A stretch of 64,000 nucleotides of DNA from a virus (IMGVR_UViG_3300012953_000017:55920-119919); one strand, 5' to 3'. Counted from the first letter of the stretch, positions 1-21,447 are shown. The notes: generated by a model not told the origin, from the sequence alone. Numbers and translations are program-made.

Positions 1-152
1 CAAGCAACGTTTCTGGCCTGCTCAGTAGAAGGTGCATCTACCAATTCTACCTTTAAAGCTTCTAGGTTATTTTCGAACTTGGTCGTAGGTTCCTGACCAA
101 ACTTGAGATCCATGGGGAGAACGATAGGTTCTAGATCTGTATTTTGTGGCAT
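1..152 (-). CDS. 5' part of a gene running off the left edge (MPQNTDLEPIVLPMDLKFGQEPTTKFENNLEALKVELVDAPSTEQARNVA...); possibly ThyX-like
   Basis: ATG at 152 preceded by strong SD AGGAGG; frame open to window edge. LKVELVD resembles the first strand of ThyX-fold proteins (weak). Confidence 0.6.
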   Translation of the reverse strand, partial: MPQNTDLEPIVLPMDLKFGQEPTTKFENNLEALKVELVDAPSTEQARNVA

Positions 153-182
153 TGCTTTCCTCCTTTGTGCCAGGTCAATGCA

Positions 183-479
183 CTAAAAATACCACGATTC
201 ATCCCAGTGTTCAACACTAGATGTCTTATTTTTGTCATCTTTTTTGCCTATAATTTCATTCCAAAAGATCGACAATGAATTGGTATATCCTGATCGATTG
301 AGCGCGGTGTCACCCATATGCAACCAAAGATTCATGCACACATCATGGTAAGCTTCATCTATTTTATCTCGATTTGACTCAAGTTTCCACTCGTCCGGGA
401 CACAATCTTTAGGTGCAGTGCCTGAGTGGATTAAATCGATAGCACGGCGAACACTTTTATGAATTTTTAATAAGTTCAT
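183..479 (-). CDS. hypothetical protein
   Basis: ORF overlapping the upstream stop; AAGGA SD before ATG at 479. Confidence 0.55.
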   Translation of the reverse strand: MNLLKIHKSVRRAIDLIHSGTAPKDCVPDEWKLESNRDKIDEAYHDVCMNLWLHMGDTALNRSGYTNSLSIFWNEIIGKKDDKNKTSSVEHWDESWYF

Positions 480-1395
480 ACAGATCATCCTTATCAGAAA
501 ATAAAGTCACTAAATCAACGTTTTTAAGCTCTGTGTTGTAAGGCAAAGCGGGAGAGAAAACTTGCACACCATGCTTCGCGTATTCGGTTGAGTGCTTTGG
601 AGAATCATCAACTGCACAGATCACTTTCCCTTCTTTGTAGAACTCTTGATCGGATAACCACCTAAATTTTTCTCCGGAAAAGTCAAGTGCGTCAAATTGT
701 AACTCTGACTCTGAAAGCCACATGTAAGTATCGTGATAGCATTTAAGATTGTCAGAAGGGCGTGCTGTTAGTAGATGAATCCAGTAGCCTTCACTCTTGA
801 GCTTGTTGACGACACGTACCAGCTTTTCATTCTGCTCTAATATTAAAAACCCGCTCTCATTAATGAAATCTCTAAAAACTTGTTCCGGAGCTAGGCCGGC
901 ATTGAGAACGTCAGATACGTTATAGTATTCCGGGCAAGACACCGGAGTATCGACGCCCTTTGTCACTCTTAGCCAGTCAAAAAAAGACTTTCTAAAATGC
1001 GCTAAAACATCATCAATATCAAATATGACTACCGGTTGTCCTTGCCATGCATTCCTTTCTAGAGAATGTCTCATGTGAAGGAATACATCTTTTGACTCAC
1101 ACGCAGTTTCAAAATCTTCCGGTTTAATATCCCAGAGATTCAAGATAGCCAAAACATATCTGAAAGCATCGACAGACTTATATAAAATCTTGTGGTGGTC
1201 TACCTGATTTTTAACTTGTCTGTGGTCTTTAAAATTAATTGCTGAACCTATTCCGGAGGCTTCAGAATGAAGTGCGAGAACAAAAGTTTTTGTAATCTCT
1301 TCCTTTTCCTTTGTAGACAGTTTTTCACTATTAAAAAACAGACTTGAAAATTCTTTTTGTCTAATTAAAGACTTTGCCAGAGTTTCAAAATTCAA
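457..1395 (-). CDS. fusion: degenerate all-alpha NTP pyrophosphatase (MazG/dimeric dUTPase-like) domain plus HAD-family 5'(3')-deoxyribonucleotidase-like domain
   Basis: N-terminus aligns by eye to 3189..3575 (SVDAFRYVLAIL vs IVDAFNYFLSLL). C-terminus has HAD motifs FDIDDVL, LLTAR, K, VDDSP. Confidence 0.8.
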   Translation of the reverse strand: MNFETLAKSLIRQKEFSSLFFNSEKLSTKEKEEITKTFVLALHSEASGIGSAINFKDHRQVKNQVDHHKILYKSVDAFRYVLAILNLWDIKPEDFETACESKDVFLHMRHSLERNAWQGQPVVIFDIDDVLAHFRKSFFDWLRVTKGVDTPVSCPEYYNVSDVLNAGLAPEQVFRDFINESGFLILEQNEKLVRVVNKLKSEGYWIHLLTARPSDNLKCYHDTYMWLSESELQFDALDFSGEKFRWLSDQEFYKEGKVICAVDDSPKHSTEYAKHGVQVFSPALPYNTELKNVDLVTLFSDKDDLYELIKNS

Positions 1396-1406
1396 GAGAA
1401 TTCTCC

Positions 1407-1616
1407 TTATACAGACACATTATCTAGATCGACAGGGTCAACGTTGAACACAACTTCACCGTGCAAAAGCACTTCACATAAATTTTCGGAAGTGTAGTTG
1501 AGCATTATTCCTACAGCGTCCTCTTCTATAATTACTTGCTGAGAACCATACATGGACGCATAGTTTCCTACGCTGTGTGAATTGAACTTCACCAAAGTAC
1601 CTCTTTCGCTACACAT
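1407..1616 (-). CDS. small hypothetical protein
   Basis: ORF in operon orientation. Confidence 0.55.
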   Translation of the reverse strand: MCSERGTLVKFNSHSVGNYASMYGSQQVIIEEDAVGIMLNYTSENLCEVLLHGEVVFNVDPVDLDNVSV

Positions 1617-1750
1617 AAGTAAAATATAGCCGCCTTTAAAAAAAAGTACATTTAAACAGCATTGGGTAGTTTTTTTCCATAGTTATTAAATGTGCCTAAA
1701 GTCATAAAGATTATTGGCTCTCGTAAGGCAACAAATATTATTATGAGAAC

Positions 1751-2392
1751 TTGATAGTGCAAGAAAATCGTCCTGACAACGAAGAAGTCTTTAACGCTCT
1801 GACACATGGGGTTGGCGCGATTTTGGCTTTGGTTGGCGGAGTTTTTTTAATTGGACAATCTTGGGAAATAGGGCCCTGGCACTTTGCTGGGGCTTTTTTG
1901 TATTCAGTTTCTCTTTTTTCAACTTTTTGTGCGTCAGCTTTTTACCATATCTCAACAGATCCTTTAATAAAGCATAGGTACAGAGTTCTGGACCATTCAT
2001 CCATTTACTTGGCAATAGCAGGGAGTTACTCTCCTATACTTCTAGTAAGTCTAATGGACAATTGGGGACTGCTATATTGTGTTGTAGTGTGGGTGTTGGC
2101 AATTGCAGGAATTCTGTACAAGTCTAAATACACAGGAAAGCATGAGGAATATTCACTCGGAACTTATCTAATGATGGGGTGGATAGGGCTCTTGATTGTG
2201 CATGACATTATAGAAACAATACCTAGCGCAGGATTATATTGGCTTTTAGCAGGCGGCATTATCTACACATCCGGGGCTTATTTTTATTACAAAGACGATA
2301 AAAGATGGTACCACACCATATGGCATTTTTTTGTACTAGGCGGCAGTATGTGTCACTATATTTTGGTCTCTAAGTACATTATACAACCTTAG
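1751..2392 (+). CDS. hemolysin III / PAQR (TrhA/YqfA-like) membrane protein
   Basis: EEVFNALTH, SAFYH, LDHSSIYLAIAGSYSP and HTIWHFFV motifs; about 7 hydrophobic segments. Confidence 0.92.
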   Translation: MIVQENRPDNEEVFNALTHGVGAILALVGGVFLIGQSWEIGPWHFAGAFLYSVSLFSTFCASAFYHISTDPLIKHRYRVLDHSSIYLAIAGSYSPILLVSLMDNWGLLYCVVVWVLAIAGILYKSKYTGKHEEYSLGTYLMMGWIGLLIVHDIIETIPSAGLYWLLAGGIIYTSGAYFYYKDDKRWYHTIWHFFVLGGSMCHYILVSKYIIQP

Positions 2393-3170
2393 TCAGTCCC
2401 ATTTTTTCAATGTATCTGGAAGTGTGAGAATCCATCATTCTCGACTTATACACACCTAATTCCTCTTCAGTAGCGTCTAAGGCGTTCCTGGCAAGATATT
2501 TTTCAACATAAACAGAAAGTGTATTTATAAATTTTTCCAGATTGTCTTCATTAACATTGTCTTCGAGGTATGCGATATTTTCTTCCACTCGAGCGTCTAT
2601 TTCCATTGGACTACTCATGTGTGTATAAAGATCCGCATTAGTCACATCATCAAGTGGGTACCCGTATATCACACGCTGAATAGAATGTTGCATTTCATGA
2701 GCTAGTGCTGCTCTTATCTCCATGGGGAGTGTCGTCAAAAACGGCTTAAGATCTCTTAAATCTTTCGGCATATGCAGAATTATTTCTATTATTCCCTCAT
2801 CTTCAAAATCATCGCTGTGAAGATATCCTGCATCAACGTCAGAATGATCAGCACTTTTGATTAAAAAATGAAACTCTACGTCTGGTAGAGCGTCAAAGTA
2901 CTCGCCTTTGGGCTCCGGTAATTTTTGATTATTTTCTGAAGAAATTAAGTCTGTATAGATAAAATCAATTGTGTCATAAACAGCTTGTGAGTCAATTGAG
3001 CCTTTATTTAAATTAATCGAATTAACAATGGCACTCACAATGGGGTATGCGATTTGAGATGCTGCAGACCTCAGATCAAATCTTTGCTGAATCTGACTAG
3101 AAGAAGACTCATAAATTAGCCTTTCTTCTGTTTGATCGCTGTCGTTACTGTTTAAAATTGTGTCATTCAT
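2379..3170 (-). CDS. putative zincin metallopeptidase-like protein
   Basis: AHEMQH (HExxH) plus downstream PMEIDA glutamate motif. Confidence 0.55.
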   Translation of the reverse strand: MNDTILNSNDSDQTEERLIYESSSSQIQQRFDLRSAASQIAYPIVSAIVNSINLNKGSIDSQAVYDTIDFIYTDLISSENNQKLPEPKGEYFDALPDVEFHFLIKSADHSDVDAGYLHSDDFEDEGIIEIILHMPKDLRDLKPFLTTLPMEIRAALAHEMQHSIQRVIYGYPLDDVTNADLYTHMSSPMEIDARVEENIAYLEDNVNEDNLEKFINTLSVYVEKYLARNALDATEEELGVYKSRMMDSHTSRYIEKMGLTKVV

Positions 3171-3188
3171 AACACATATAAATATGCG

Positions 3189-3575
3189 CTAGTAGCCTGT
3201 GTTAAGACGGTCGTGAATAACTTCATCCTTTTTGCGATATGCGTCAAAAAGCTCATCAGCTGTAACGCCAGTAAGAACTAATAAGGACAAAAAATAGTTA
3301 AAAGCGTCAACAATTTCTTCTAGAAACTCTTCTCTATCAAATTCGTCTACTTCGGTCTTCTTGTGGGGTTTCCAGTTTTTTAAATGCTGAAGTGCTTCAA
3401 ACATTTCTTCGACACCTTTCAAAGCAGTATCTCTTAACACTTGCTGAGACTTCTTTTGTGTCAAAGAGACAGGCCATTCTGGGTATATGTCTGGGTTTGC
3501 CTTACTAATTTCTACCATAAATGATTCACGCAGGCGAAACATTTCAGACAGCTTATCTTTATTACTCAGACTCAT
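3189..3575 (-). CDS. all-alpha NTP pyrophosphatase (dimeric dUTPase / T4 gp56 dCTPase / MazG superfamily)
   Basis: VEEMFEA...WKPHK...LEEIVDAFNY metal-binding motifs; GAGGAG SD before ATG 3575. Confidence 0.85.
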   Translation of the reverse strand: MSLSNKDKLSEMFRLRESFMVEISKANPDIYPEWPVSLTQKKSQQVLRDTALKGVEEMFEALQHLKNWKPHKKTEVDEFDREEFLEEIVDAFNYFLSLLVLTGVTADELFDAYRKKDEVIHDRLNTGY

Positions 3576-3795
3576 TTGTCTCCTCAACAAGTTCTTGTAC
3601 CTCAGAAATCATAGCTTCTAAATTGTTATTAAAAGTCTTTTCATACTCTGATTCTAGGTCAAGAACACCTTCATTACTTACAAACTTAATAAGTCGTAAG
3701 TTATCAGTGATGTCTGTCCCAGTTAATATTGCAACTTGTAATACTTTGGCAATTTGTGCAATTGCAGAATCTGATAGCTTGTAGCAGTCAAACAT
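3562..3795 (-). CDS. hypothetical protein
   Basis: AAGGAG SD before ATG 3795; coupled to neighbours. Confidence 0.7.
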   Translation of the reverse strand: MFDCYKLSDSAIAQIAKVLQVAILTGTDITDNLRLIKFVSNEGVLDLESEYEKTFNNNLEAMISEVQELVEETNESE

Positions 3796-3812
3796 ATTAT
3801 TCTCCTTTTTTT

Positions 3813-4619
3813 TTATTTCTGAATTTTTGGTACCCAATGTGTTGTCCTTCCATCAGGTGTCTTTTCTTTAACAACCTCATTACCTTCAGGGTCGTTCTTT
3901 TGATTATATACCAGGAACCTCTGTGCGTATTGGCCCAATGTTCCGTTAAAATTTTCGTATGTTCTTATTGTAGCACCGCCTGACCGAAAGCTTTCTCTCA
4001 ATATTTTTTTAATTGCTGAGTTAAGTGATGACAAATCTTTGTCAGAAAGAGAGTCAACTGTCCTGTGTGGTGATATCTTGGACAGCCACAAAGAGTCTGC
4101 TTTTACATAGTTTCCGACGCCAGCCACCACTGACTGGTTCATTATAGCTTTAGTGATAGGCCACTTAGACTTCTTTCTAATGGCTTGAAAAAACACTTCA
4201 TCTTTTACATCAGTGGCTAGCATATCCGGCCCTAATGCCTTGAGTTTTTCTAACAAATAATGTTTTCCTCTGACTATTTTAACAGTGCCAAAATTTCTTT
4301 GATCGTTGAAGTACACCTTACTTTTATCGTCAAAACAAAACTCGACTCTAGAATGCTTTTTTTTATTAGGTGACCAATGGCCGGTCATTCCTAGCGTGTT
4401 CCAAATATAGTGATCATTTTTTAGCATCCAGTATAAAAACTTGCCATGCACACCTACACCGGTGACTTTTGCCGGCAGCGTACCTACAGATTCTAGAAGT
4501 CCTGGAATTGGCTTTTTCGTATATCTGCCGCTTAGCACATTTATGCTTTTTAAAGTCTTTGCGGAGACAAATTCAGACAAGTCTAATCCGTATCTTCTTA
4601 CTTCAGGTCCTTCAGGCAC
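3813..4619 (-). CDS. mutM: Fpg/Nei family DNA glycosylase/AP lyase (zincless-finger type)
   Basis: N-terminal PEGPEV, HGKFL, LGMTG, DQRNFG, LGPD, H2TH motif AGVGNYV; C-terminal GRTTHW without Cys zinc ligands. Confidence 0.93.
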   Translation of the reverse strand: MPEGPEVRRYGLDLSEFVSAKTLKSINVLSGRYTKKPIPGLLESVGTLPAKVTGVGVHGKFLYWMLKNDHYIWNTLGMTGHWSPNKKKHSRVEFCFDDKSKVYFNDQRNFGTVKIVRGKHYLLEKLKALGPDMLATDVKDEVFFQAIRKKSKWPITKAIMNQSVVAGVGNYVKADSLWLSKISPHRTVDSLSDKDLSSLNSAIKKILRESFRSGGATIRTYENFNGTLGQYAQRFLVYNQKNDPEGNEVVKEKTPDGRTTHWVPKIQK

Positions 4620-5031
4620 AGTTTTCCTCCAGCCAGTCTCGATATTTATTCAAGGCATGATCGTTAGGGCGTACATTTTTCCAGTCACCTACACAGAAAA
4701 CTCTCCACGCATCCTCAGCGTACTTTCCGCATCCGTAAAGCTCTTTAGGCGATGACCACTCCTTCTCAACGTATTCTCTAGAGAATCTCCGAAGGGTCTC
4801 TGTACGTCTCTTCCACATTCCTAATGGTTTTATAAGGCTTTGCAAATCGTTAACATCTGCGTCCTTCATAGAATCTGCTGTGGGATACTTACGAAAAAGC
4901 TTCTCGTACACTTTGTCAACTTGTTTTCTAGAAGTTTGATTATGAAGAAGACACGCCACTAGTATTTTCCACTCATTAGGCCACAAATCTTCTTGCAGCA
5001 TTCCGACTGGTGATCGAGGTGGTCTCCACAT
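4612..5031 (-). CDS. MBD4-like HhH-GPD mismatch DNA glycosylase (T:G/U:G), stand-alone catalytic domain
   Basis: WRPPRSP...LQE...WKILVAC..N.TS...KYP...IKPLG...ELYGCGKYAEDAWRVFC...P.DH.LNKY.DWL follows the MBD4 glycosylase domain end to end. Confidence 0.88.
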   Translation of the reverse strand: MWRPPRSPVGMLQEDLWPNEWKILVACLLHNQTSRKQVDKVYEKLFRKYPTADSMKDADVNDLQSLIKPLGMWKRRTETLRRFSREYVEKEWSSPKELYGCGKYAEDAWRVFCVGDWKNVRPNDHALNKYRDWLEENCA

Positions 5032-5085
5032 GCAGAGTCTCCTTTTATAAACTTGTTATATTATAAAAAGAGATCTTAAGATGTA

Positions 5086-5388
5086 TTACTTGAAAACTCG
5101 CTCTTTGGCAGTGTCAAAAAGCTCTTTCATAAAAGATTTCTTTAGTTTGAGTAACCTATCAAATTTGACTTTATTTCTAGCGTCTGTGTAGAGTGCAGTG
5201 GGCTTTTTAATCTGGCCATCAATAAGCTGATCGCTAAAGTCATAAAATTTAGACTTAGGGCTTCGAGGTGGCTTAGCTTCGGCATCTGTTGGTGCCGCAC
5301 ACATTCCTATGCAAAATGCTATAATGCACGACATTATCATGGTCATGATTGATGAGTGTCTTATAAATCTTCTTACACCAGGAAGCAT
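5086..5388 (-). CDS. secreted GltF/CglF-like (adventurous gliding motility) protein
   Basis: Signal peptide ending AEA; YDFSDQLIDGQIKKP...YTDAR.KVKF..L...KSF resembles the CglF/GltF core pattern DFxDxxIxGxxxKP...AR (recalled, not searched). Confidence 0.65.
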   Translation of the reverse strand: MLPGVRRFIRHSSIMTMIMSCIIAFCIGMCAAPTDAEAKPPRSPKSKFYDFSDQLIDGQIKKPTALYTDARNKVKFDRLLKLKKSFMKELFDTAKERVFK

Positions 5389-5404
5389 ACTGTCTAAGTA
5401 TGCA

Positions 5405-5707
5405 CTAAGCTTGTCCTGGTTTCATCGCGGCAAGAATTTTAATCTCAGCCAGTTTCCTGTCCATCATTTGACGAAACTCTTCAGAATGATTTGCAATTTC
5501 AGCTGATCGAATTTCTTCAATCATGTCCCAAACAGAATCGTTTTCATCTGTTAGTTCTCTTATTTCTTTTATGCAAAACTTTAATGATTCTTCAAGCATA
5601 GCCAATCGAAAGTTAGCATCGTGCTCTGGCGAAGGTTTTTCTAAGACTGACTCTATTAGAACAAGTTGCTCTTCTACAAGTTGTGATCTAGTAAGTTTTT
5701 TTGTCAT
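5405..5707 (-). CDS. hypothetical coiled-coil protein
   Basis: ORF abutting upstream stop; helical composition. Confidence 0.65.
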   Translation of the reverse strand: MTKKLTRSQLVEEQLVLIESVLEKPSPEHDANFRLAMLEESLKFCIKEIRELTDENDSVWDMIEEIRSAEIANHSEEFRQMMDRKLAEIKILAAMKPGQA

Positions 5708-5708
5708 G

Positions 5709-6518
5709 TTATTTATTATATTCGACGACACGAACTCTTATAACTGGAATATGATCATCAGGCGTCTTATCCATAACGCCGACAAATTTGCATTCTTCAG
5801 GAACTACATACACTACAAACTCTAGATCGTCTAAATGCATTAAGCACTGAGAAGTTGAACGCATATTGTCTGTTGTGCGCATCATGTTGTAGTTGCTTCC
5901 TTTATCAAAATTTTGCTTTGTTAAAGTTGGCATTATTTTGTTATGGTCATCAATATCAGAAAGCTCCATTTCTGCTGTAGCTTTTCTTATTTTTGATGAT
6001 AGGTAATCATCAGGTTTTCTGTCTGGAGTATAACCCGCACCATCATGGTCTTGACCATGATTTGTCCTTACATCAAACCCTGTAGAAGGGTCTAGCTTTT
6101 TTATAATTGGGTTGTGTTTACTAGTCATCTCAATGCTGTACATTGACTTATTGTTTCCCGCGAAGGTGTGCCCTTTAATTCCATCTCTATAGGAAACTAA
6201 TGATTTTATACAGTCTGAAAGTGTTTCTTGTTCGAGTGCATGAATCATTCTAGGACCATCGTCTGACTGAAGCTTTCCTTTTACAGCCTTTTCGTCTTCA
6301 CCCACGAGTAATGCAGCGTTTATCACTCCAATTCCCTTCTCGTTCATGCCTTCCATGTAGTTAGTATACAGATCGTGTAGGTATACAACTTCCATTCCAT
6401 TTCTTATCTCTCTTACTAGTCTGAGCTTTGGAACATAGTTTCTGTCTCTAGTTTTACCTAGAACATTGCCTCCTGAAATTTGGCCACCTACAATTATACA
6501 TTCGCGCAAAGGTTTCAA
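5709..6518 (-). CDS. Ntn-hydrolase family protein (Cys nucleophile; C45/C59-like)
   Basis: CIIVG near the N-terminus, GKTRD, EGMNEKGIGV and RTNH motifs typical of Cys-Ntn hydrolases; TTG start with GGAG SD. Confidence 0.75.
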   Translation of the reverse strand: MKPLRECIIVGGQISGGNVLGKTRDRNYVPKLRLVREIRNGMEVVYLHDLYTNYMEGMNEKGIGVINAALLVGEDEKAVKGKLQSDDGPRMIHALEQETLSDCIKSLVSYRDGIKGHTFAGNNKSMYSIEMTSKHNPIIKKLDPSTGFDVRTNHGQDHDGAGYTPDRKPDDYLSSKIRKATAEMELSDIDDHNKIMPTLTKQNFDKGSNYNMMRTTDNMRSTSQCLMHLDDLEFVVYVVPEECKFVGVMDKTPDDHIPVIRVRVVEYNK

Positions 6519-6530
6519 TTTTTTCTCCAG

Positions 6531-8486
6531 CTATGACATTAGGTAAATATAATTTTGATTTACGGTACACGCAACTCTAAAACCACAGATCATGTCATGA
6601 AACTCGACTAAAGCATTAATATCTCTTCTGGTTGGTTCATACATGTGATAAACGAGCGACTCGTTTTTAGAAAACTTCTTCTTAAACCACCCTACTAATT
6701 TTTTACCTGCATCAATTCCTTTTTCCCACACAGCTTTTATTCCGGTCCAGAAAAAGCCTAGTGCTTTTTTAGCCATAGTGCTTATTAGACCTACAGTGTA
6801 TTTAAAGAATTTGTCTTTTTGCTGTGCTTGCCACTCTTCATCCTTGTCTAAAAATTTAGAAGCGGCCCAAATACACCCTTTTGCTACACAATAGGCAACT
6901 ACTAAAGCTAACAGAACTTTACCTATGGCAAGCCACATACCTGCACTCACACCCATCAAAGTTCCGCCAGCCCAAGTGCTTTGGACGCCGGTTGCACTGG
7001 CCATCATGTGTGTCATGGCACCTCCGACGCCGCTGACAGAAGTTGAGGCAGGCATGCCCATTGTCGCGAGCAAAGAAGGTGTAGTTATCGTTGCAGATGC
7101 GCCGGCGCCGAACAAATGAGCATATGCTGCAGCCCCAAAAGAACCAATAGTTCCGGCTCCAACTGCAAACATGCCTATTGTTCTAGAAAGTCTATCCTTT
7201 ATGCTTCCTTTACCTCCAGAAAGATCTTCAATCGCAGCTTCTAGTTTATCTTGATCTGACTCCAGCTCGGCTATTTTTTCCTGATTTTCAGCTATTTCTT
7301 TAATAGCATCATCAAAATTATCTGCTTGTATGCCGATTCCTTTTAAGCCTGCCATAGCTGTTTCGGCGGCGCCGTCAGCATTGGAGACTTTGCCCTGTAT
7401 TTCTTCAGCGCCGCTTTTTATTTCGCCTTCAGCAGAGGCCATGCCTTCTTCTGTAGGCATGAATTCATCATCAAATATACTCTTGTCAGACTGCTGCGCG
7501 TCGATACCATCGCCTTCTAAAGTTTCAGTCTCTATGCCTACATCAGCAAGGTCAATCTGATTAGGCTTCTGATTACCACCTTTTTCTGATGCACCTTTTG
7601 CTGCTTTGCCAATGTCACCTTTTTGCTCACTAGAAGGAAGATAGCCTACATTTCCTGATTGTAGACTAAAACCGTTTTTTTGTGCGTATGCAGAGCAAAA
7701 GTCTAGAACCTGAGCCGGCTCTCCTTCTACACCTGCGTCAGATAATTTTTGTGCTATGGCAGACGCTAACTGCGCTACATCTCCTGGTGTGACTGGTTTT
7801 GCAGTGTTTTCTACGTCTTCGAACTCTGGAATGACATTCTTTAGGCTCATGGCAAAACCTTTCATCATCCCTACACCCTCGAGCGCAGAATTAACTTGAG
7901 GTTGATATTTTTCCATTTCTTCTGCCATAGCTTGTGTCGCTGCTGCATCTTTAGCAGCGGAGGCGTCTTCCATTAATAATTTCCACACTGCATCGGATTT
8001 GCATCGTTCATTTACATTTTTCTGTGACGGGAAAGCAGGCACGCCTTCAAGCTCTTGAATTTTAGCTGCAGCACCGGACAAAATTTCTTTGGAAGTTTTG
8101 ACAGCAACTTTCTTGACATATTCTCTGCCCTTATCAGTCTGTGGCTTTATTGCAGTCCATTTTATTTTTTCATCTTTGGTGTCTTTAGAAAGCCCTAGGT
8201 CTTTGCGAGAGACTTGCCCTCCAGATACGTCTCGCTCTACTTCATTTGAAATAAAATCAGTCGTTTGTGTTTCGTAAGTTTGTGTTGCGTTATCTAGTTC
8301 TACACCGAAGAGAGATAAAACTGAAGTGAAAAGACCTTTGATAAAATCAAGTATTCCTTCATCTACTTTTTTAATAGAGGATCGGGATCGAGCATTAAAG
8401 CTCGATTTTAGAATAGTCTCTATAATTACCTGTTCTTTTGAAAGGCCATAGACTGAATTAAATTTTCTCGTTCTTTGTTTTCTCAT
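6531..8486 (-). CDS. large hypothetical protein with C-terminal Gly/Ala-rich hydrophobic helices (candidate virion internal/ejection protein)
   Basis: 651-aa ORF; acidic coiled coil followed by hydrophobic segments; ATACTTA motif upstream at 8530-8536. Confidence 0.6.
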   Translation of the reverse strand: MRKQRTRKFNSVYGLSKEQVIIETILKSSFNARSRSSIKKVDEGILDFIKGLFTSVLSLFGVELDNATQTYETQTTDFISNEVERDVSGGQVSRKDLGLSKDTKDEKIKWTAIKPQTDKGREYVKKVAVKTSKEILSGAAAKIQELEGVPAFPSQKNVNERCKSDAVWKLLMEDASAAKDAAATQAMAEEMEKYQPQVNSALEGVGMMKGFAMSLKNVIPEFEDVENTAKPVTPGDVAQLASAIAQKLSDAGVEGEPAQVLDFCSAYAQKNGFSLQSGNVGYLPSSEQKGDIGKAAKGASEKGGNQKPNQIDLADVGIETETLEGDGIDAQQSDKSIFDDEFMPTEEGMASAEGEIKSGAEEIQGKVSNADGAAETAMAGLKGIGIQADNFDDAIKEIAENQEKIAELESDQDKLEAAIEDLSGGKGSIKDRLSRTIGMFAVGAGTIGSFGAAAYAHLFGAGASATITTPSLLATMGMPASTSVSGVGGAMTHMMASATGVQSTWAGGTLMGVSAGMWLAIGKVLLALVVAYCVAKGCIWAASKFLDKDEEWQAQQKDKFFKYTVGLISTMAKKALGFFWTGIKAVWEKGIDAGKKLVGWFKKKFSKNESLVYHMYEPTRRDINALVEFHDMICGFRVACTVNQNYIYLMS

Positions 8487-8503
8487 AAGTTTCTTTTACT
8501 TCT

Positions 8504-9328
8504 TTAAAGACTAGTCTTTATATGTATGTTAAGTATCTTCTTCGGAGTAGCAATGTACTCATTCCATAAACTAGTCTTTACACTTCCGTTACAAGACTCT
8601 AACTCATAACATATGTTTGAATTATCGCCGCCTGGGTAACCTAGTCTGTGTAAATTAAGTGCCCTTCTCTTGTTGTCGACTGCCATTGATTTTATATCGC
8701 TTCGAAAACCCGCTCGGACATTACCTAGAAGGTGCACTATAATATTAGATTCAGGCCTAAAAAAAGGCCTGACTGCTACAGTAAAAGTAGATATATCAAA
8801 AGGATTACCTGTTTCCATTGAAGCTTCGAGTCTATCTAAGCCTTCTTTCGACGTGTAATGAAGCAACTCTTTTGGATTATTTGTAGACCCATAAAGCTGT
8901 GTGGTAAATTCTTCGTCTATCAACACATACGGTTCCATGTCACCTCTGGAATAAAAATATGCAAATCTTAGACTTCGAATATCTGAAAAATAAGAAGCAA
9001 ACTGCCTCTCAAATGACCACAATCTGTGGTTTACGAAGTCTTCAATAAAGTCCAGAACATTCTTTCTAGTTAATAGATCCCACCTGTCAACTTCCGTGGA
9101 TAGCTGGTACCCAAAAAACTCAGAAAGCTGCCCAACAAATCTTTCAAAGTCTTCTATTCTGCAAAAAGACGTGTGCTTACAACTAATTTCTCCGCCACGG
9201 GTGTCCATTCCTATGGTCTGAAGGTCTAAGAGATAAGTTGCCATCTCTTCCCACTCATTAAGTGTTTTGAACGCAGACTCAGGCTTAATGTAGCCTCTTA
9301 CTTTTGGGTGATCAGTGAGATTTTTCAT
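8504..9328 (-). CDS. hypothetical protein, possible ADP-ribosyltransferase-fold C-terminal domain
   Basis: LLHYTS...DISTF...WNEYIA spacing resembles ART core strands. Confidence 0.45.
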   Translation of the reverse strand: MKNLTDHPKVRGYIKPESAFKTLNEWEEMATYLLDLQTIGMDTRGGEISCKHTSFCRIEDFERFVGQLSEFFGYQLSTEVDRWDLLTRKNVLDFIEDFVNHRLWSFERQFASYFSDIRSLRFAYFYSRGDMEPYVLIDEEFTTQLYGSTNNPKELLHYTSKEGLDRLEASMETGNPFDISTFTVAVRPFFRPESNIIVHLLGNVRAGFRSDIKSMAVDNKRRALNLHRLGYPGGDNSNICYELESCNGSVKTSLWNEYIATPKKILNIHIKTSL

Positions 9329-9583
9329 CTATATCGGCCCTAGTTGATCCATTGTCTTTGTAAGGACGTCACCAGGATCCCAAGTAGGGCCGTCATTTGT
9401 ACATTCATAACTTACAGACTTTCCCATATCTTTAGGTAAACTTTTAACCAGAACAACAACACCTTCGCTGCCATAATGTGTGCAGTTAGGGTTTGTATTC
9501 ACCACGCTGTCTCCGCTGACAGGTTCGTATGTGTGACTTACAAAACTCTCCAACAACACTCTTCTTACAAATTCTCTCAGCAT
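9329..9583 (-). CDS. hypothetical protein with N-terminal LREFVRRVLLE motif
   Basis: ORF abutting neighbours. Confidence 0.7.
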   Translation of the reverse strand: MLREFVRRVLLESFVSHTYEPVSGDSVVNTNPNCTHYGSEGVVVLVKSLPKDMGKSVSYECTNDGPTWDPGDVLTKTMDQLGPI

Positions 9584-9961
9584 TTATTTTCTCACGTAGT
9601 GGCGCCAATTATACCATGGGCGTATGCTTAAGTAATTAGGATACTTGTCATGTGTATACGCTTCTCGCTCAAAAGGATTTTCATAATACGCTTTTTTTCC
9701 GCTTCTGCATCTTATTAATCCTATTAACCAGAACACCCCGTAAAGAATCCATTGCCCTACAAAAAGAAGCTCAATTTGTTGTTGGTAATGAATTGTTTCG
9801 TGCCTTCTAGTTTTTTCGGACAGCTCTCCTCTACACCACACCCAAAATGCAAAACTTAAAGCCCAAATCTCTATTGGTGATATTTTTGAAAGCCACACTG
9901 GAATCTTGCTATTTTCAAACTCCCATGGCTTTCGAGACTTTAACCATTTAGAAACTCTCAT
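9584..9961 (-). CDS. small HExxH metallopeptidase-like protein
   Basis: RHETIH plus NPFEREAY motifs. Confidence 0.65.
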   Translation of the reverse strand: MRVSKWLKSRKPWEFENSKIPVWLSKISPIEIWALSFAFWVWCRGELSEKTRRHETIHYQQQIELLFVGQWILYGVFWLIGLIRCRSGKKAYYENPFEREAYTHDKYPNYLSIRPWYNWRHYVRK

Positions 9962-9962
9962 T

Positions 9963-10241
9963 TTACCTCCCGTACTTGGCTTCGTACCTCTCTCGACCTG
10001 CCTTTGAAAATGCCGGATTTACAAATACAGCATATATTCTCGGACTGCCAGGGAAAGTCGATACTATTTCTACTTTTCTCTCTACTTCCCAGCCGGCGGC
10101 TCTATATTTTTCAACTAGTGTTTTCATGTAAGGACCCCATGTTGGATCGATGTCAACTATTTTTCCATTTACACATTCATTGTCAGTCCATGTAGACTCC
10201 AAAATGTCATTGATTATATCAACAATATCTTTACGTTTCAA
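9963..10241 (-). CDS. hypothetical protein
   Basis: TTG start with GAGGA SD. Confidence 0.65.
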   Translation of the reverse strand: MKRKDIVDIINDILESTWTDNECVNGKIVDIDPTWGPYMKTLVEKYRAAGWEVERKVEIVSTFPGSPRIYAVFVNPAFSKAGRERYEAKYGR

Positions 10242-10954
10242 TTTAATTCCTCGCTGTCTTTATTAATTAGGTGCACTAACTCTTTCCAATGTGCTGGATT
10301 AATACCGGGTGGAGGACCACCAAGACTTAAAGTGTCTAGAGCATCCTTGTACTTCTGCTTTTGTTTTGGGCTAGGGGCACTTTGTAGATTATGCAACATA
10401 TCTGATAGTTTTATTTTTAGCACGTCTGGTTTGTTTGCTATTGATGCAACATAATCAGAATAATCAGTACCTTTGGTATGTGTAAGTGACCTTACAATAT
10501 CCAGTGCTCTTAAACCTATGTCCGGCTGTCCAAAAGATCCTGCGATCAAAGATTCCATTTCTTCGCTGGATTTAACATTTCCTTGCGAAAGTGCATCTTC
10601 TAGAGCATCATGGAGCAAAGCAGCTGCGCACAAAACAGGCTCATCAGGATAGTATGCGTAGACAATATTTGCCACTTCAACTGGATGCACAAGATACGGC
10701 TCGCCTGTTCTTCTTTTTTGTCCTAAGTGTGCCATTTGAGCAGTGGCCAGAGCGTCAGCTACATCGTCATTTACATCGCCACAGACTTCATTAATGTGTT
10801 GTAAAATTATGGATCTTACATAGTTTCTAAGGATGTTTTCAGATGTGCCTTGAGAATTCTTTAGTTTCTTAATTTGGCAAGAGATATCATTTTCTCGAAC
10901 TTGTCTTAACGAACCAGAAATATAATATCTTATGTATTCCTTGAGCACCTTCAT
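10238..10954 (-). CDS. HD-domain (p)ppGpp hydrolase-like protein (small alarmone hydrolase, SpoT/Mesh1 type) with N-terminal extension
   Basis: AHLGQKRRTGEPYLVHP, AALLHDALED and IKLSDMLHNL motifs; no synthetase domain. Confidence 0.88.
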   Translation of the reverse strand: MKVLKEYIRYYISGSLRQVRENDISCQIKKLKNSQGTSENILRNYVRSIILQHINEVCGDVNDDVADALATAQMAHLGQKRRTGEPYLVHPVEVANIVYAYYPDEPVLCAAALLHDALEDALSQGNVKSSEEMESLIAGSFGQPDIGLRALDIVRSLTHTKGTDYSDYVASIANKPDVLKIKLSDMLHNLQSAPSPKQKQKYKDALDTLSLGGPPPGINPAHWKELVHLINKDSEELN

Positions 10955-10993
10955 AGGGACAACACCACCCTATGTTAAGTATTTTCTAGTCGT

Positions 10994-11707
10994 CTAGAAA
11001 TCTTTGTTATCTCTAAACGCTTTAACTGTTATAGGCCAAACTTCTTCTGCTATCGTCAATAAAGCTTGAGCTACTTGTTGAATTTCCCACTGAGCGCCCT
11101 CGTGAATCCTAAGCTCTATGAATTTCATTAAGTTGCTAAGGTTGCAAGTACCATAGTACTCAGTGTAGAGGTTCTGGGGCAGGACTCCTCGAGCTTGCTC
11201 TCTGCAGACACCTGATTCTAATAGATTTTCATAAAGGTTTAGTGAAGATTTGTGGTGTGATCGAACAGCAGCGCTAGCGCTGAGAACGCCTCCATCTTCG
11301 TACCGGTACAAAACAGGATCATCGGTCTTGTTAGTGCTGGCCTGTCGATTTGATTGATGCTGAGATCTAAAAACACTTGGTTCATAGAATCTTAAGTCTA
11401 CTTCAGTGTATCTTCGACTTATCTCATTATAAGCCCAAGTTCTATGGCGATGGTGCTGACTACGAATGAAAAGAGGCACCACGAAACGACAAGTGAGAAC
11501 GTTGTGCTCCAAAGTGGAAGTGTGGCGATGCTTAATAAGATAATCAATAAGTCTTTCATCTTTGTCATCTAGAATATCCTTTTGCTTTCCAAAACTAACT
11601 CTGGCTGCATTAACAACAGTTAAGTCATGCCCCATATGACTAACATAATCAACGCGACCGATGCCGTCTGAATAGAGGTCTATAGACTTTATCTTAGTTT
11701 CTGTCAT
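10994..11707 (-). CDS. thyX: FAD-dependent thymidylate synthase
   Basis: VNAARVSF, HTSTLEH, RHRxxxxNExSRRY signature, REQARGVLP, AQWEI. Confidence 0.96.
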   Translation of the reverse strand: MTETKIKSIDLYSDGIGRVDYVSHMGHDLTVVNAARVSFGKQKDILDDKDERLIDYLIKHRHTSTLEHNVLTCRFVVPLFIRSQHHRHRTWAYNEISRRYTEVDLRFYEPSVFRSQHQSNRQASTNKTDDPVLYRYEDGGVLSASAAVRSHHKSSLNLYENLLESGVCREQARGVLPQNLYTEYYGTCNLSNLMKFIELRIHEGAQWEIQQVAQALLTIAEEVWPITVKAFRDNKDF

Positions 11708-12101
11708 CCTTTACACCCTTACCATACCACCGGGCGTTTCTTCCTCGCACATCGTAATGAGTAAATGTTGTGTAAAGCCCAACGCCGCCTTTCATCATCT
11801 TACCTTCTTTAATAAGATCAACAATAACAGCTTTTACTTCAGCAGGTGTCATTCCTTTGACTTTAATGTCGGCAGCATTTGCGGTCATATGCTGACTTCT
11901 TCTGGCACCTCCGATTCTGCGATTATACTTTGGGGAGCGGTATCCGCTAATGACTCTAATAGGTTTTCCTATTTCATCTCTTAGTACTTGAAGATTTTCG
12001 CATAGAAGAGATACGTTATCCATTAACTCTTCAGGAACGTCAGTACCGTCTTTACACCTGAACTCTGATAAAGAGAAGTTTTGTGTTATTTTATAACTCA
12101 T
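11694..12101 (-). CDS. peptidase M15A family (candidate endolysin)
   Basis: NFSLSEFRCK, SGYRSP..N..IGGA..SQH..ANAADI and FTHYDVR motifs. Confidence 0.88.
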   Translation of the reverse strand: MSYKITQNFSLSEFRCKDGTDVPEELMDNVSLLCENLQVLRDEIGKPIRVISGYRSPKYNRRIGGARRSQHMTANAADIKVKGMTPAEVKAVIVDLIKEGKMMKGGVGLYTTFTHYDVRGRNARWYGKGVKDDRN

Positions 12102-13024: not shown

Positions 13025-15484
13025 TTAACCACATTTGCTGCTTCCACAAGCAGTACAAGTCACACAACCTTCCTGATATACAAGTGTATCTTCTGCACCA
13101 CAATTTTCACATGTAGTCTTTCCCGGTACTGTTCCATCCTTAATGTAGTACTTCAAAACTCTAGCAATGACTTTTGAAAATGAAAACATATCCATCTCTC
13201 TGTCTTTTTGAAGCTGCTCAACAACATAATTTATTTTTGCACCATGCCTAAGTGCCAATGATATCGTCCTAGTAAACCCTGCGTGATTAGGATTATCAAA
13301 CACATCAACAATATCTTTTATTAAAATAGAGTCACCGTTCTTACCAATCCTTAAGTCATATCTAGAGTTCTTGGTCTTGTAATGATGTTTAATGATTGTT
13401 CCTTTCTTGTATCTCTTAGGTATCTCTATGTACTTCTGAAGACCTCCCATTACCTCATAAGGTCTACCATCCATTAGACCTACAAGAATTGTCCAGGCTT
13501 CACCCTTGATGGTCGCATGATGAATGTGGCATTTAAGCTCAAATGGCCTGTCCGGGGCGTGATGTGTCTTAAACTTTATGTCCTCATTTTCCTTTGACAC
13601 GAGAACACCAGCTCTTGATCCATCTCTGTATACAGTTACACCTTTACATCCTGACTGCCACCCGGCCATGTAAACATCTTTAACAGTGTCAATAGAGACA
13701 TCTGAGGGCAAGTTTGTTGTGTTTGATATTGCGTGGCACACCCATTTTTGAGCTGCAGCTTGCATTTTAACTTTTGAAACCCAGTCAATTTCAGTTGCAG
13801 TTGCTCCTGAATATGGGGAGTCTTTTACTTCTTCTAGGCCTGACGCCTCCATCCATTTCTTAAAACCTTGATGGTAAACTGGATATTCCTGCCATCTGTC
13901 TCCGGAGTCATCAACAAAGTCAACTCTTCCATCTAAATCATTTTCAGTCAACTTCTTTCGTCGTGTATAAGAGAGCATGTAAGCCGGCTCAATTCCTGAA
14001 GTTGTCTGTGTTAATACACTTACTGATCCTGCAGGGGCTGTTGTCACGAGAGCAATATTTCTTCTACCAAATTTTTGTGACATTTCTCGAACTTCAGGTG
14101 CCTCTTTCCAAATTCTCTCTAAAAATTCATTTCCTCGTTCTAGATCATGATTGTGTATAGGAAACGCGCCTCGCTCTTTAGCCAAGAAACAAGAAGACTT
14201 ATATGCGTTAACAGTTAGAGTCTTGTAGAGGCTTTCCACAATTTCAATGGACTTGTCAGAGCCGTATCTAACACCTAGCGCTGCCACTGTATCGCCAACT
14301 GCAGTAACGCCTAATCCTGTGCGTCGGCCTTGAAGCGCTTGATTACGAATTTTTGTCCAAAGATTTTTTTCTATTTGTTTGACTTCAGGTGGCTCTGGGT
14401 CTTGTTTAATTTTTGCAAGAATTTTGTCTACCTGCTCTATCTCTAAGTCGATCATATCATCCATAAGTCTCTGTGCTTTTTGAACCACAGAAGATAACTC
14501 TTCATAATCGAGGTAGGCTTCTTCTGAAAAAGCATTTTTGACAAAAGAAGAAAGATTTACAAGCATAAGGCGGCAACTATCATAAGGGCTTAATATTATC
14601 TCGCCGCATGGATTAGTTGAAGTCGATCCAAAGCCCTGGTCTGAATAAACGTCGGCAGGAGTTAATTTCTTAGCAGTGTCCCAAAACAGTAACCCGGGTT
14701 CGGCTGCAGCGTGTGCGCTTTCGATAATTTCGTCCCAAAGATTTTTGGCATCCACAAGTTGAGAAACTTTTCTCTTTTTATTTTTTTCAACTGGAAACCT
14801 TAGTTCGAAGTCTTTCTCTTCTCGGACTGCCTGTAAAAATTCATCAGACAATCTCACAGAAATATTTGCGCCGGTTACTCTTGTTAAGTCTCGTTTAATT
14901 TTTATAAAGTCACGGACTTGTGGGTGATGCACAGAGATTGTCAACATTAGGGCACCTCTTCGGCCTCCTTGTGCTACTTCACGGCAAGAGTTACTAAACC
15001 TGTCCATAAAAACTTCAATTCCGTCCGTTGTTCTGGCGCAGTTTCCAGTAGATAAGCCTTTTGGGCGAATTGAAGATATGTCAAATCCGACTCCGCCGCG
15101 GCGCTTCGCGATCTGCACTAACTCTTGATCTGTCTTAAGGATACCTCCGTAAGAGTCATGAGGTGATTCAATAACAAAACAGTTCGAAAGTGACTGTATT
15201 TGATATGGATTGCCGATACCAGACATTGGTGAACCTTGTGGGACAATATACTTAAAGTCTTTTAAAAGGCCGTATATCTCTTCTTCTGACATGGAATTAG
15301 GATATTTTTCTTCTATTCGTGAAAACTCCTTCGACATTCTTCGATGCATGTCGTCTGGTGTCATTTCATGAATATTGCCTTCTTTGTCTGTCAGGGCATA
15401 TTTTGTAATAAATACATTGGCAGCTAGCTCATCGCCATCGAAGTACGCTAAGCTCTGTTGATACGCTTCATTATAATTCGCCAT
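13025..15484 (-). CDS. nrdJ: class II (adenosylcobalamin-dependent) ribonucleotide reductase
   Basis: SNCFV, GGRRGA, TNPCGE, APAGS, GCKGVTVYRDGSR, C-terminal Cys-rich tail; no nrdB adjacent. Confidence 0.92.
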   Translation of the reverse strand: MANYNEAYQQSLAYFDGDELAANVFITKYALTDKEGNIHEMTPDDMHRRMSKEFSRIEEKYPNSMSEEEIYGLLKDFKYIVPQGSPMSGIGNPYQIQSLSNCFVIESPHDSYGGILKTDQELVQIAKRRGGVGFDISSIRPKGLSTGNCARTTDGIEVFMDRFSNSCREVAQGGRRGALMLTISVHHPQVRDFIKIKRDLTRVTGANISVRLSDEFLQAVREEKDFELRFPVEKNKKRKVSQLVDAKNLWDEIIESAHAAAEPGLLFWDTAKKLTPADVYSDQGFGSTSTNPCGEIILSPYDSCRLMLVNLSSFVKNAFSEEAYLDYEELSSVVQKAQRLMDDMIDLEIEQVDKILAKIKQDPEPPEVKQIEKNLWTKIRNQALQGRRTGLGVTAVGDTVAALGVRYGSDKSIEIVESLYKTLTVNAYKSSCFLAKERGAFPIHNHDLERGNEFLERIWKEAPEVREMSQKFGRRNIALVTTAPAGSVSVLTQTTSGIEPAYMLSYTRRKKLTENDLDGRVDFVDDSGDRWQEYPVYHQGFKKWMEASGLEEVKDSPYSGATATEIDWVSKVKMQAAAQKWVCHAISNTTNLPSDVSIDTVKDVYMAGWQSGCKGVTVYRDGSRAGVLVSKENEDIKFKTHHAPDRPFELKCHIHHATIKGEAWTILVGLMDGRPYEVMGGLQKYIEIPKRYKKGTIIKHHYKTKNSRYDLRIGKNGDSILIKDIVDVFDNPNHAGFTRTISLALRHGAKINYVVEQLQKDREMDMFSFSKVIARVLKYYIKDGTVPGKTTCENCGAEDTLVYQEGCVTCTACGSSKCG

Positions 15485-19067: not shown

Positions 19068-19104
19068 TCTAGACCTCCTGGGACTGGATAGTAATATAAT
19101 AAAG

Positions 19105-19140: not shown

Positions 19141-19151
19141 TATTTAGAGGC

Positions 19152-20994: not shown

Positions 20995-20997
20995 TTT

Positions 20998-21432: not shown

Positions 21433-21447
21433 GAAACCTCCAGTACA

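Follow-up and report, generated by a model that had tools for sequence, protein, structure and literature searches.

Why should a large marine phage keep, besides an ordinary flavin-dependent thymidylate synthase (ThyX), a second gene of the same fold, and why should this second gene stand among enzymes that take nucleotides apart and repair DNA? The question is raised by the left end of a 64,000-nucleotide stretch of viral DNA (IMGVR_UViG_3300012953_000017:55920-119919, called the window below), whose first 5 kb had been interpreted before any database search as a candidate modified-cytosine system. This sequence-only reading named an MBD4-like glycosylase, an Fpg/Nei enzyme, an NTP pyrophosphatase, a fusion of a dead pyrophosphatase with a HAD domain and a left-edge gene weakly resembling ThyX, and we recovered all five genes at the positions it had given, on the minus strand. 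The first 5 kb of the window belong to a block of some 15 kb for nucleotide metabolism, replication and repair, of which they are the right half; the block is arranged around a DnaE polymerase gene. The best reading of this block, which we hold with middling confidence on sequence grounds, is that it encodes a pathway for a C5-modified cytosine in the phage DNA.

The window corresponds to bases 55920-119919 of a 119,919-bp IMG/VR virus contig with a CheckV completeness of 42%, so that contig positions are window positions plus 55919. Nearly all contig genes are on the minus strand, and genes for lysozyme, ligase, sigma factor, chaperonin, a ClpP-type protease and DnaE polymerase mark the contig as part of a large tailed phage. 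Related contigs of up to 284 kb (rated 100% complete) and of 239.5 kb with terminal repeats put the complete relatives at about 240-285 kb, and marine metagenome runs from at least three studies contain the same phage sequence. Because window positions 1-12000 gave no megablast match in the phage collection searched, and DnaE gave only distant tblastn matches there (best 1e-105, identity at most 29%), that collection contains no close cultured relative of the lineage.

The left-edge gene was completed from the parent contig and indeed encodes a protein of the ThyX fold. It gave a Pfam Thy1 match (1.2e-18, 68 bits vs. a cut-off of 24.8), and its AlphaFold2 model (predicted local distance difference test score, pLDDT, 95.9) adopted the ThyX fold, with PolB (4p5b; 7e-11, target-normalised TM-score, TMt, 0.75) as the top Foldseek match, followed by ThyX structures (PolB and ThyX together spanning 7e-11 to 1.6e-8). 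The gene previously noted as a canonical thyX at 10994-11707 deserves this name: it matches Thy1 at 9.2e-48 and passes the curated equivalog cut-off of TIGR02170 (165.8 bits vs. 87.9), which the left-edge paralog misses with 41.9 bits. In the alignment with Thermotoga maritima ThyX, the paralog replaces His53, Glu86, Ser88, Arg90 and Tyr91 by Leu, Ala, Cys, Gly and Asp. The ThyX motif is RHRxxSxxxxSxRY, of which the paralog retains the RHR and the first Ser and carries Cys, Gly and Asp for the second Ser, the Arg and the Tyr, leaving the motif incomplete. A signature of its own, SFSAQC(T/S)GD within THxxRxRxxSFSAQC(T/S)GDxDxR, recurs in family members at 23-86% identity. In canonical ThyX, Ser, Arg and Tyr contact dUMP, the Tyr forming a lid over C5 and flavin N5, according to passages of PMC6514825.

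All five large genomes of the lineage that were tested contain exactly two Thy1 matches, one canonical and one paralog. Moreover, the paralog showed the highest median identity of the block (70%, compared with 64.5% for DnaE and 42% for the MazG-HAD fusion) in a close set of 80 viral contigs whose paralogs are 60-86% identical to that of the window phage, and in which the block genes were sought by tblastn within 10 kb. Because it fails the equivalog cut-off, carries the loop replacements throughout its family, coexists with a canonical ThyX and is the most conserved protein of the block, we regard the paralog not as a second thymidylate synthase but as a distinct enzyme with a remodelled substrate loop. 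Its relatives form a discrete family, with 520 proteins at E<=0.001 and 45 at <=1e-30 in a library of 1.84 billion representatives. A collection of 5.8 billion clusters yielded 1010 proteins at E<=0.001, the best 120 of which are 82-100% identical and include many from Tara and other marine samples; the paralog-bearing lineage is common in the sea. One metagenomic family member (P0144, 551 residues) is extended at its N-terminus by a stretch with a weak glycosyltransferase family 2 match (1.6e-4, below the cut-off).

Not all of the paralog's substrate site is remodelled. It retains the equivalents of T. maritima ThyX R78, R80, R147 and R174 as R114, R116, R177 and R204, each invariant or at least 90% conserved in the family. 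The residue matching R174, Arg199 of the Mycobacterium tuberculosis enzyme, is assigned in passages of PMC12004180 to the N3-ionised uracil, whose N3/O4 edge it reads. Because this arginine is kept, the paralog need not act on cytosine, and a uracil-derived (thymidine-type) hypermodification has to be weighed. In this alternative, dCMP deaminase would supply dUMP, which the paralog would convert to 5-hydroxymethyl-dUMP or to a different 5-substituted dUMP; the MazG enzyme and the MazG-HAD fusion would bias the nucleotide pool as a dTTPase/dUTPase and a dTMPase, and the modified base would partly replace thymine, similar to what has been hypothesised for Bacillus phage SP-15. We consider it improbable. 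The retained equivalents of R147 and R174 speak for it, and so does the fact that the Tyr lid over C5 is gone (on the role of the lid, see passages of PMC6514825), which by our own reasoning could allow water to reach an exocyclic methylene. A dCMP deaminase gene within the block would provide the dUMP; dTMP, however, is already made by the canonical ThyX, and a thymidine kinase is present as well.

The closest published idea also concerns uracil. SP-15 is a large phage with two proteins of Pfam family Thy1, and passages of PMC5977210 propose, as a hypothesis, that one of them is a hydroxymethyl-dUMP synthase making a modified-pyrimidine precursor; this SP-15 protein is a structural neighbour of our paralog model (BFVD rank 15, 3.6e-6). 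The resemblance has limits, as the SP-15 gene is described in these passages as lacking homologs, SP-15 is absent from the 18 tblastn matches of the paralog, and the structural similarity is weak (query-normalised TM-score, TMq, 0.42). PMC7824862 remarks in general terms that thymidylate, or else a modified pyrimidine, is produced by jumbo phages that have thymidylate synthase or ThyX. In the literature on ThyX combined with phage-modification terms, we found no tested modifying role for a ThyX paralog and no link to a ThyA remnant, the SP-15 hypothesis being the nearest. A change of substrate within the ThyX fold is exemplified by PolB, a C5-methylase of UMP/dUMP in polyoxin biosynthesis; this enzyme of Streptomyces secondary metabolism is the best structural match of the paralog, although the two share 17% identity and there is no sign of PolB pathway partners here.

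The genes around the paralog travel with it. In the close set, we found the gene of the nucleoside 2-deoxyribosyltransferase (NDT) family near the paralog in 77 of 80 contigs, MazG in 74, the MazG-HAD fusion in 70, a 91-residue open reading frame (ORF) in 65, an RmlD-type short-chain dehydrogenase/reductase (SDR) in 55, DnaE in 51, Fpg in 49, the kinase gene g78 treated below in 27, the MBD4-like gene in 20 and canonical ThyX in 19. Because many loci end early, these counts are lower bounds, and the gene order is maintained across the loci. Because the block recurs in 80 related contigs, the clustering is not due to chance, and the co-occurrence in relatives that had been proposed as a check is supported. 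The paralog, the NDT-like gene, the MazG-HAD fusion and MazG make up a block that 70-77 of the 80 related marine contigs retain, and that is described here for the first time. In a distant set of 80 viral contigs with a family member 19-34% identical to the window's protein (mostly shorter than 100 kb, with a few reaching 209 kb), a full-length MazG-HAD homolog lies just upstream of the paralog in 26 and DnaE near it in 26, with MazG in seven and NDT in five. Taking both sets together, 96 of 160 loci have the fusion next to the paralog.

These data bear on the plainest alternative, in which the phage DNA is not modified at all. The block would then serve ordinary salvage and base-excision repair, with the paralog as a divergent or back-up thymidylate synthase, MazG as a dUTPase, the HAD and NDT proteins in salvage, and the MBD4-like and Fpg enzymes repairing deamination and oxidation in a sunlit marine habitat. 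The source annotations call all block genes ordinary enzymes, and the phage assembles well from the standard metagenome runs of at least three studies, as expected from this view. We nevertheless judge it rather unlikely: two ThyX-fold genes are kept in five of five genomes, the paralog falls below the equivalog cut-off, four residues of the dUMP loop are replaced family-wide, and a fusion that degrades dNTPs down to the nucleoside would be wasteful for salvage, yet it is the gene beside the paralog in most loci of the two sets.

A pointer to cytosine comes from g78, which lies 6.6 kb left of the window and was found in all four large relatives examined for it; it gave no tblastn match in the phage collection. 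Comparing a profile of 23 homologs with the PDB, we found that the N-terminal part corresponds to the SPbeta YorR kinase-like protein (1.1e-6), and that residues 233-299 match T4 dCMP hydroxymethylase (9.5e-4 over 67 residues) as the best member of the ThyA family, with recent entries named 'thymidylate synthase' matching still more weakly than the T4 enzyme. Among NCBIfam models, TIGR03283 (archaeal thymidylate synthase) matched weakly (2.5e-4, 20.6 bits vs. a cut-off of 174.55). For residues 150-302, 29 of 30 ESM Atlas neighbours fell into one family set (score 0.93), the top rows of which are small clusters, several of them mainly viral, with PF00303 on 38-76% of their members. R228, R229, C237, R257, S258 and D268 are invariant in all 23 homologs, as is a His, and this set of Arg-Arg, Cys, Arg-Ser, Asp and His is what is expected of a ThyA catalytic core. 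On this marginal basis, we read g78 as a putative fusion, in what would be a new architecture, of a P-loop kinase with a reduced domain of about 117 residues that resembles ThyA and dCMP hydroxymethylase ('mini-ThyA').

D268 aligns with Asp179 of T4 dCMP hydroxymethylase, which is the Asn177 position of E. coli ThyA. In passages of PMC13326640 (2026), the exchange of Asn177 to Asp in ThyA enzymes is reported to give dCMP preference, and the 5-hydroxy-dCMP synthases of RB69 and DLP3 are described as flavin-using ThyA homologs that hydroxylate dCMP and are marked by Asn at the Asp169 position. The latter position is Asp260 in g78, which therefore lacks the marker of the 5-hydroxy-dCMP synthase branch; in the 23 lineage homologs it is D in 17, N in four and E in two, and Asn also occurs in the distant copies of phage GR1 and of the records L107 and L104. 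The earlier inference of a modified cytosine thus gains from an Asp cytosine-specificity residue outside the window, and nothing favours the 5-methyl group that it had named over 5-hydroxymethyl or 5-hydroxy. The same Asp argues against the uracil-derived alternative, as the enzyme paired with the paralog carries Asp, never Asn, at the base-specificity position in every copy.

In distant phages, the pairing is direct. An iterated hidden Markov model search detected stand-alone mini-ThyA copies of about 150-190 residues right after the paralog in eight of 81 sources, all among the closest of the distant paralog members and including the cultured Geobacillus phage GR1. Seven of the eight genes abut or overlap the paralog gene, with a kinase-like ORF intervening in the remaining one. 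PF00303 passes its cut-off on the paralog-adjacent small ORF in two of the eight records (25.2 and 27.2 bits), and all seven aligned copies, whether stand-alone or fused, have retained the Cys, the Arg-Ser and the Asp. In GR1, the paralog is 46% identical to that of the window phage, the next gene is the mini-ThyA, annotated as 'hypothetical protein', and the module further contains genes for an NDT protein, a P-loop kinase and a flavoprotein of the nitroreductase family, together with a pyrophosphatase of the dUTPase_2 type, a PHP/DnaE polymerase and a protein annotated as a glycosyltransferase. In the examined passages of the GR1 paper, the phage DNA is analysed neither by restriction nor at the nucleoside level. 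For GR1 and a complete genome of 70 kb, the paralog is the only Thy1 gene, and there is no PF00303 match; this could mean that the paralog makes dTMP, as an unmodified genome would have it, whereas the tie of a dCMP-type mini-ThyA domain to the paralog in distant phages points the other way.

Because the mini-ThyA domain lacks an obvious folate-binding half and is tied to a flavoprotein of the ThyX fold, we tentatively propose, as an idea that is still rather unlikely to hold, that the two constitute a two-component flavin-dependent dCMP C5-modifying enzyme, a hybrid of two unrelated thymidylate synthase folds. The ThyA remnant would hold the nucleotide and activate it via its Cys, and the ThyX-fold partner would give a flavin-borne methylene group or reduced flavin for hydroxylation. 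A complex prediction of the paralog with the mini-ThyA domain scored 0.00, which gives no verdict and is evidence neither way. If such an enzyme exists, cytosine hypermodification would begin with it, both in a very abundant jumbo-phage lineage of the sea and in smaller phages like GR1.

The remaining enzymes near the paralog are predicted to clear nucleotides. The suspected intact all-alpha NTP pyrophosphatase is borne out: its ORF spans 3189-3590, the previously chosen ATG at 3575 being an alternative start, and it matches phrog_12184 (1.4e-19) and dUTPase_2 (3.1e-5, 24.7 bits vs. a cut-off of 22.9). The motifs EExxE and ExxD, which we take to be the acidic metal-binding motifs of MazG and all-alpha NTP pyrophosphatases, are readable in its sequence. 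Homologs are annotated variously as dUTPase, MazG-like or dCTP pyrophosphatase, names given without assays, and counts by organism revealed no T4-like record among its 90 matches. Residues 54-109 of the fusion resemble this MazG protein (BLASTP 5e-6), and its model (pLDDT 96.0) consists of a four-helix N-terminal domain and a HAD domain. The former had been called dead, which is right for this copy in that two of four acidic positions are lost (Gly48 and Lys73 for Glu) and does not extend to the family, where Glu is found in 28 and 35 of 52 members at these positions. The HAD domain, on which no Pfam family scored above its cut-off, has the 5'(3')-deoxyribonucleotidases 3bwv, 4l6a and 1q92 as Foldseek matches (TMt 0.74-0.81), and D126 and D128 of its DxD motif are invariant in 52 of 52 aligned family members. 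Its nearest neighbour is the mitochondrial 5'(3')-deoxyribonucleotidase, an enzyme that prefers dUMP and dTMP, which again suits the uracil-derived alternative. The NDT-family protein matches PF05014 (2.4e-12, 47.4 bits vs. a cut-off of 28.8) and PDB 6evs (4e-8). Its Glu, presumably the catalytic residue of the nucleoside 2-deoxyribosyltransferase family, aligns with the WELG stretch of 6evs, and transferase and hydrolase are not separable by these data.

The MBD4-like protein belongs, by sequence, to the subfamily to which it had been assigned. It matches Pfam HhH-GPD (1.7e-12), and its residues 2-137 align with the glycosylase domain of human MBD4 (PDB 3iho) at 2.6e-43; fifteen distinct MBD4 chains score from 2.6e-43 to 1.3e-41, and the next families, MIG and endonuclease III, at 8e-4 or weaker. 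Its AED aligns with the GND of the human chain, the Asp of which we take to be catalytic Asp560, so that an Asp occupies the catalytic column. The 139 residues comprise the glycosylase domain alone, without an N-terminal methyl-CpG-binding domain; homologs have 131-162 residues, longer fused forms not having been sought. The proposed coupling to Fpg/Nei also stands, as the two genes overlap by 8 nt and the partner has all three Pfam domains above their cut-offs (N-terminal catalytic, H2TH and C-terminal finger; 7.3e-18, 1.7e-17 and 7e-10). This protein begins with Met-Pro-Glu, which provides the N-terminal Pro-Glu; because it does not reach the Fpg equivalog cut-off of TIGR00577 (169 vs. 203.3 bits), it may be of either the Fpg or the Nei subtype. 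The two genes abut in eight of 14 related loci holding both.

XP12 is the classical 5-methylcytosine phage, and its relatives give the repair gene a meaning: of 18 isolated-phage records with an MBD4-like homolog, eleven are Xanthomonas or Stenotrophomonas phages of the XP12 group. The XP12 protein is likewise a stand-alone MBD4-type glycosylase (37% identity, 8e-25), and its gene abuts a MazG-like gene, a ThyA homolog (PYD motif with Asp) and a dCMP deaminase gene, with a dihydrofolate reductase (DHFR) gene also there. By analogy, the XP12 group offers a phage precedent for linking MBD4-type glycosylases to 5-substituted cytosine, and this arrangement supports the modified-cytosine inference, with the uracil-reading Arg of the paralog as its counterweight. 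That the precedent lies in this group and not in phages with hydroxymethyluracil again disfavours a uracil-derived base. XP12 differs in having a full-length ThyA homolog (PF00303 3.2e-40), the DHFR and a PolA polymerase, in having no Thy1 gene in the 18-kb stretch examined, and in that its 'HAD'-annotated gene is MazG-like, with no similarity to the fusion of the window phage. This XP12 gene (46207-46980; L005 9389-10162), annotated as 'hydrolase (HAD superfamily)', has a PRA-PH MazG-like match (6.6e-15) and no HAD match; the annotation looks wrong, and the gene is a candidate for the dCTP/dUTP pyrophosphatase of XP12.

The pathway of T4 for hydroxymethylcytosine consists of the dCTPase/dUTPase gp56, the dCMP hydroxymethylase gp42, the dNMP kinase gp1, and Cd, Td and Tk. 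By analogy, the gene set of the window phage can fill every role of a T4-type cytosine-replacement scheme, namely a pyrophosphatase, a ThyA-family domain with Asp, a kinase, dCMP deaminase, thymidylate synthase and thymidine kinase, and adds a nucleotide-dismantling arm and a matched repair arm. Unlike in T4, the ThyA-like domain is of the mini size, fused to the kinase and undetected by PF00303, the thymidylate synthase is ThyX instead of ThyA, the ThyX paralog, the MazG-HAD fusion and the NDT protein have no T4 counterpart, and no glucosyltransferase was found in the 120-kb contig. The system of RB69 and DLP3, as described in passages of PMC13326640, shares a ThyA-superfamily enzyme with Asn177 to Asp that uses flavin instead of folate, a dedicated dNMP kinase and sugar-nucleotide genes, and the Asp169-to-Asn exchange is met in the four lineage homologs and the GR1, L107 and L104 copies mentioned above; the window phage differs in keeping D260, in its far smaller domain and in the ThyX-fold partner. 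The terms 'ThyX' and 'Thy1' do not occur in PMC13326640.

In the cytosine pathway that we favour, cytosine would be altered before replication, as in T4, XP12 and RB69. The MazG enzyme would bring dCTP (and dUTP) back to the monophosphate, and the mini-ThyA domain would bind dCMP and activate C5 via its Cys, while the ThyX paralog, as a flavoprotein, would relay a one-carbon unit or supply reduced flavin, so that C5 gains a hydroxymethyl, hydroxyl or methyl group. The kinase part of g78 would phosphorylate the modified product. Unwanted canonical deoxynucleotides would be dismantled and recycled by the MazG-HAD fusion, the NDT protein and thymidine kinase, and the supply of dTMP would be maintained by dCMP deaminase and the canonical ThyX. 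Deamination of a 5-substituted cytosine leaves a thymine-like base facing G; the MBD4-type glycosylase would remove this base, and the Fpg/Nei lyase would cut the abasic site. Two sugar-nucleotide SDR genes near the polymerase gene hint at later glycosylation; elsewhere, similar hints come from the annotated glycosyltransferase of the GR1 module and from the one paralog-family member with a weak glycosyltransferase family 2 fusion.

Several points weigh against this pathway. The data consist of assembled contigs of public runs, that is, of gene content and sequence. The retained R174 equivalent suggests a better fit to a uracil than to a cytosine nucleotide, and the SP-15 proposal points in the same direction. 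The sequence statistics behind the mini-ThyA assignment are marginal, and PF00303 gave no match at E<=1 in the whole contig, g78 included. Canonical ThyX, thymidine kinase and dCMP deaminase are also explained by plain dTMP supply, and the sugar-nucleotide SDRs may instead serve host surface chemistry. The MBD4-like gene is accessory, being missing from 60 of 80 loci (many of them truncated) and from one complete genome, and present in two of four large relatives. Neither a C5 DNA methyltransferase nor a convincing glycosyltransferase was found in the 120-kb contig, and no full-length ThyA either; because the contig represents 42% of the genome, this does not show that the phage lacks these genes. 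An unmodified genome would account for the lack of a transferase or methylase acting on DNA in the contig and for MBD4-like and Fpg genes that are dispensable in part of the lineage. Palindromes of 4 and 6 bp are not avoided (6-mer mean z +0.54; GATC observed/expected 1.03), which is weak evidence against an unmodified genome. The observed/expected ratios of CpG (0.77) and of TpG and CpA (1.09) are too weak for use as evidence.

A modified purine would call on the same gene families in a different way. In a 2-aminoadenine (dZ) genome, MazG would act as MazZ, the HD protein next to the canonical ThyX as DatZ and NDT as a dA-depleting enzyme, with PurZ elsewhere in the genome. NDT has been reported as associated with dZ phage contigs (passages of bioRxiv 10.1101/2025.10.22.683976), and adenylosuccinate synthetase genes occur in both complete relatives; even so, we regard this as very improbable indeed. 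The gene of one relative keeps GDEGKG and is PurA-like, sitting beside a gene of the GMP-reductase/IMPDH family, that of the other matches PurA structures at 1e-58 as opposed to 5e-20 to 2e-13 for PurZ, and the HD protein is a RelA/SpoT-type hydrolase and not DatZ-like. With these findings, and no PurZ or DatZ in the contig, we discarded the dZ system.

The HD protein (10238-10954) matches Rel/SpoT structures in the PDB (4e-13) and TIGR00691 (6e-20), and is a candidate (p)ppGpp or (p)ppApp hydrolase. A GMP-reductase/IMPDH-family gene (1.9e-100) is also present left of the window (contig 6774-7820, minus strand), and in one complete relative (L087 1321-3587) its homolog abuts the PurA-like adenylosuccinate synthetase with GDEGKG. 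The pair resembles a phage pathway that converts guanine nucleotides into adenine nucleotides.

To our knowledge, the enzymes identified behind phage pyrimidine modification before replication have until now been full-length ThyA homologs, as in T4, SPO1-type phages, XP12 and the flavin-using 5-hydroxy-dCMP synthases of 2026. What is new here is a ThyX-fold paralog whose gene order links it, in distant phages, with a reduced ThyA-like domain and with enzymes that clear nucleotides. Should the pathway exist, it would represent a new enzyme solution for modified DNA and explain why there is a second ThyX gene, one to which annotations routinely give the name thymidylate synthase. Restriction enzymes and certain cloning or sequencing methods might then work poorly on the DNA of a large marine phage group. 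An MBD4-type glycosylase beside such pathways, in XP12 as here, would mean that a virus brings along the repair enzyme suited to the mutations which its own base modification entails. The cultured phage GR1 is a family member in which the pathway is directly testable.

Table 1. Genes of the block and further genes discussed, in order along the contig; 'contig' and 'window' state the coordinate system used.
Feature	Position	Strand	Evidence or remark
dCMP deaminase	contig 45497-45919	-	Pfam; left of window
DHH/DHHA1 phosphoesterase	contig 45916-46755	-	Pfam; left of window
Thymidine kinase	contig 46760-47317	-	Pfam; left of window
Epimerase/4,6-dehydratase-family SDR	contig 47307-48335	-	Pfam; left of window
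g78, putative kinase/mini-ThyA fusion, 302 aa	contig 48391-49299	-	profile vs. PDB; 6.6 kb left of window
DnaE polymerase	contig 49944-53615	-	tblastn, best 1e-105; left of window
RmlD-type SDR	contig 53657-54628	-	Pfam; left of window
NDT-family gene	contig 54641-55087	-	PF05014 2.4e-12; left of window
ThyX paralog, 323 aa	contig 55100-56071	-	Thy1; first 50 codons = window 3-152, rest leftwards outside
101-aa ORF, poorly conserved	window 183-488	-	no Pfam or PHROG match; homolog in 1/80 close loci
MazG-like/HAD fusion, 312 aa	window 457-1395	-	BLASTP and structure model
Small ORF	window 1407-1616	-	
HlyIII/PAQR-family seven-helix membrane protein, 213 aa	window 1751-2392	+	Pfam 2.5e-37
ORF of no assigned family	window 2379-3170	-	
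MazG-type all-alpha NTP pyrophosphatase, 133 aa	window 3189-3590	-	phrog_12184; alternative ATG at 3575
91-aa conserved ORF between MazG and Fpg genes	window 3562-3837	-	no family match; 65/80 close loci
Fpg/Nei glycosylase/AP lyase, 268 aa	window 3813-4619	-	three Pfam domains
Stand-alone MBD4-type HhH-GPD glycosylase, 139 aa	window 4612-5031	-	PDB 3iho 2.6e-43
HD hydrolase	window 10238-10954	-	RelA/SpoT-type
Canonical ThyX, 237 aa	window 10994-11707	-	Thy1 9.2e-48

The HlyIII-family gene (window 1751-2392) is the sole plus-strand gene of the block, with homologs in seven of 80 close loci. To its right, beyond the repair pair, follow a 269-residue ORF without a Pfam match (window 5709-6518) and a 651-residue low-complexity protein with a hydrophobic C-terminal part (window 6531-8486), both on the minus strand. 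Left of the window, the contig carries host-like auxiliary genes on the minus strand, among them those for a peptide deformylase (contig 19048-19731), a sigma-70 factor (20676-21446), a GroEL-type chaperonin (22364-23989) and the C-terminal domain of an Fe/Mn superoxide dismutase (42759-43454). Two further minus-strand genes encode a 704-residue protein with three MopE-type putative metal-binding motifs (contig 13130-15244; 5.4e-28) and a 206-residue protein (contig 8515-9135) that corresponds to the N-terminal PP-loop domain of the tRNA lysidine synthetase TilS (NCBIfam 117.4 bits vs. a cut-off of 93.6) without the remainder of TilS.

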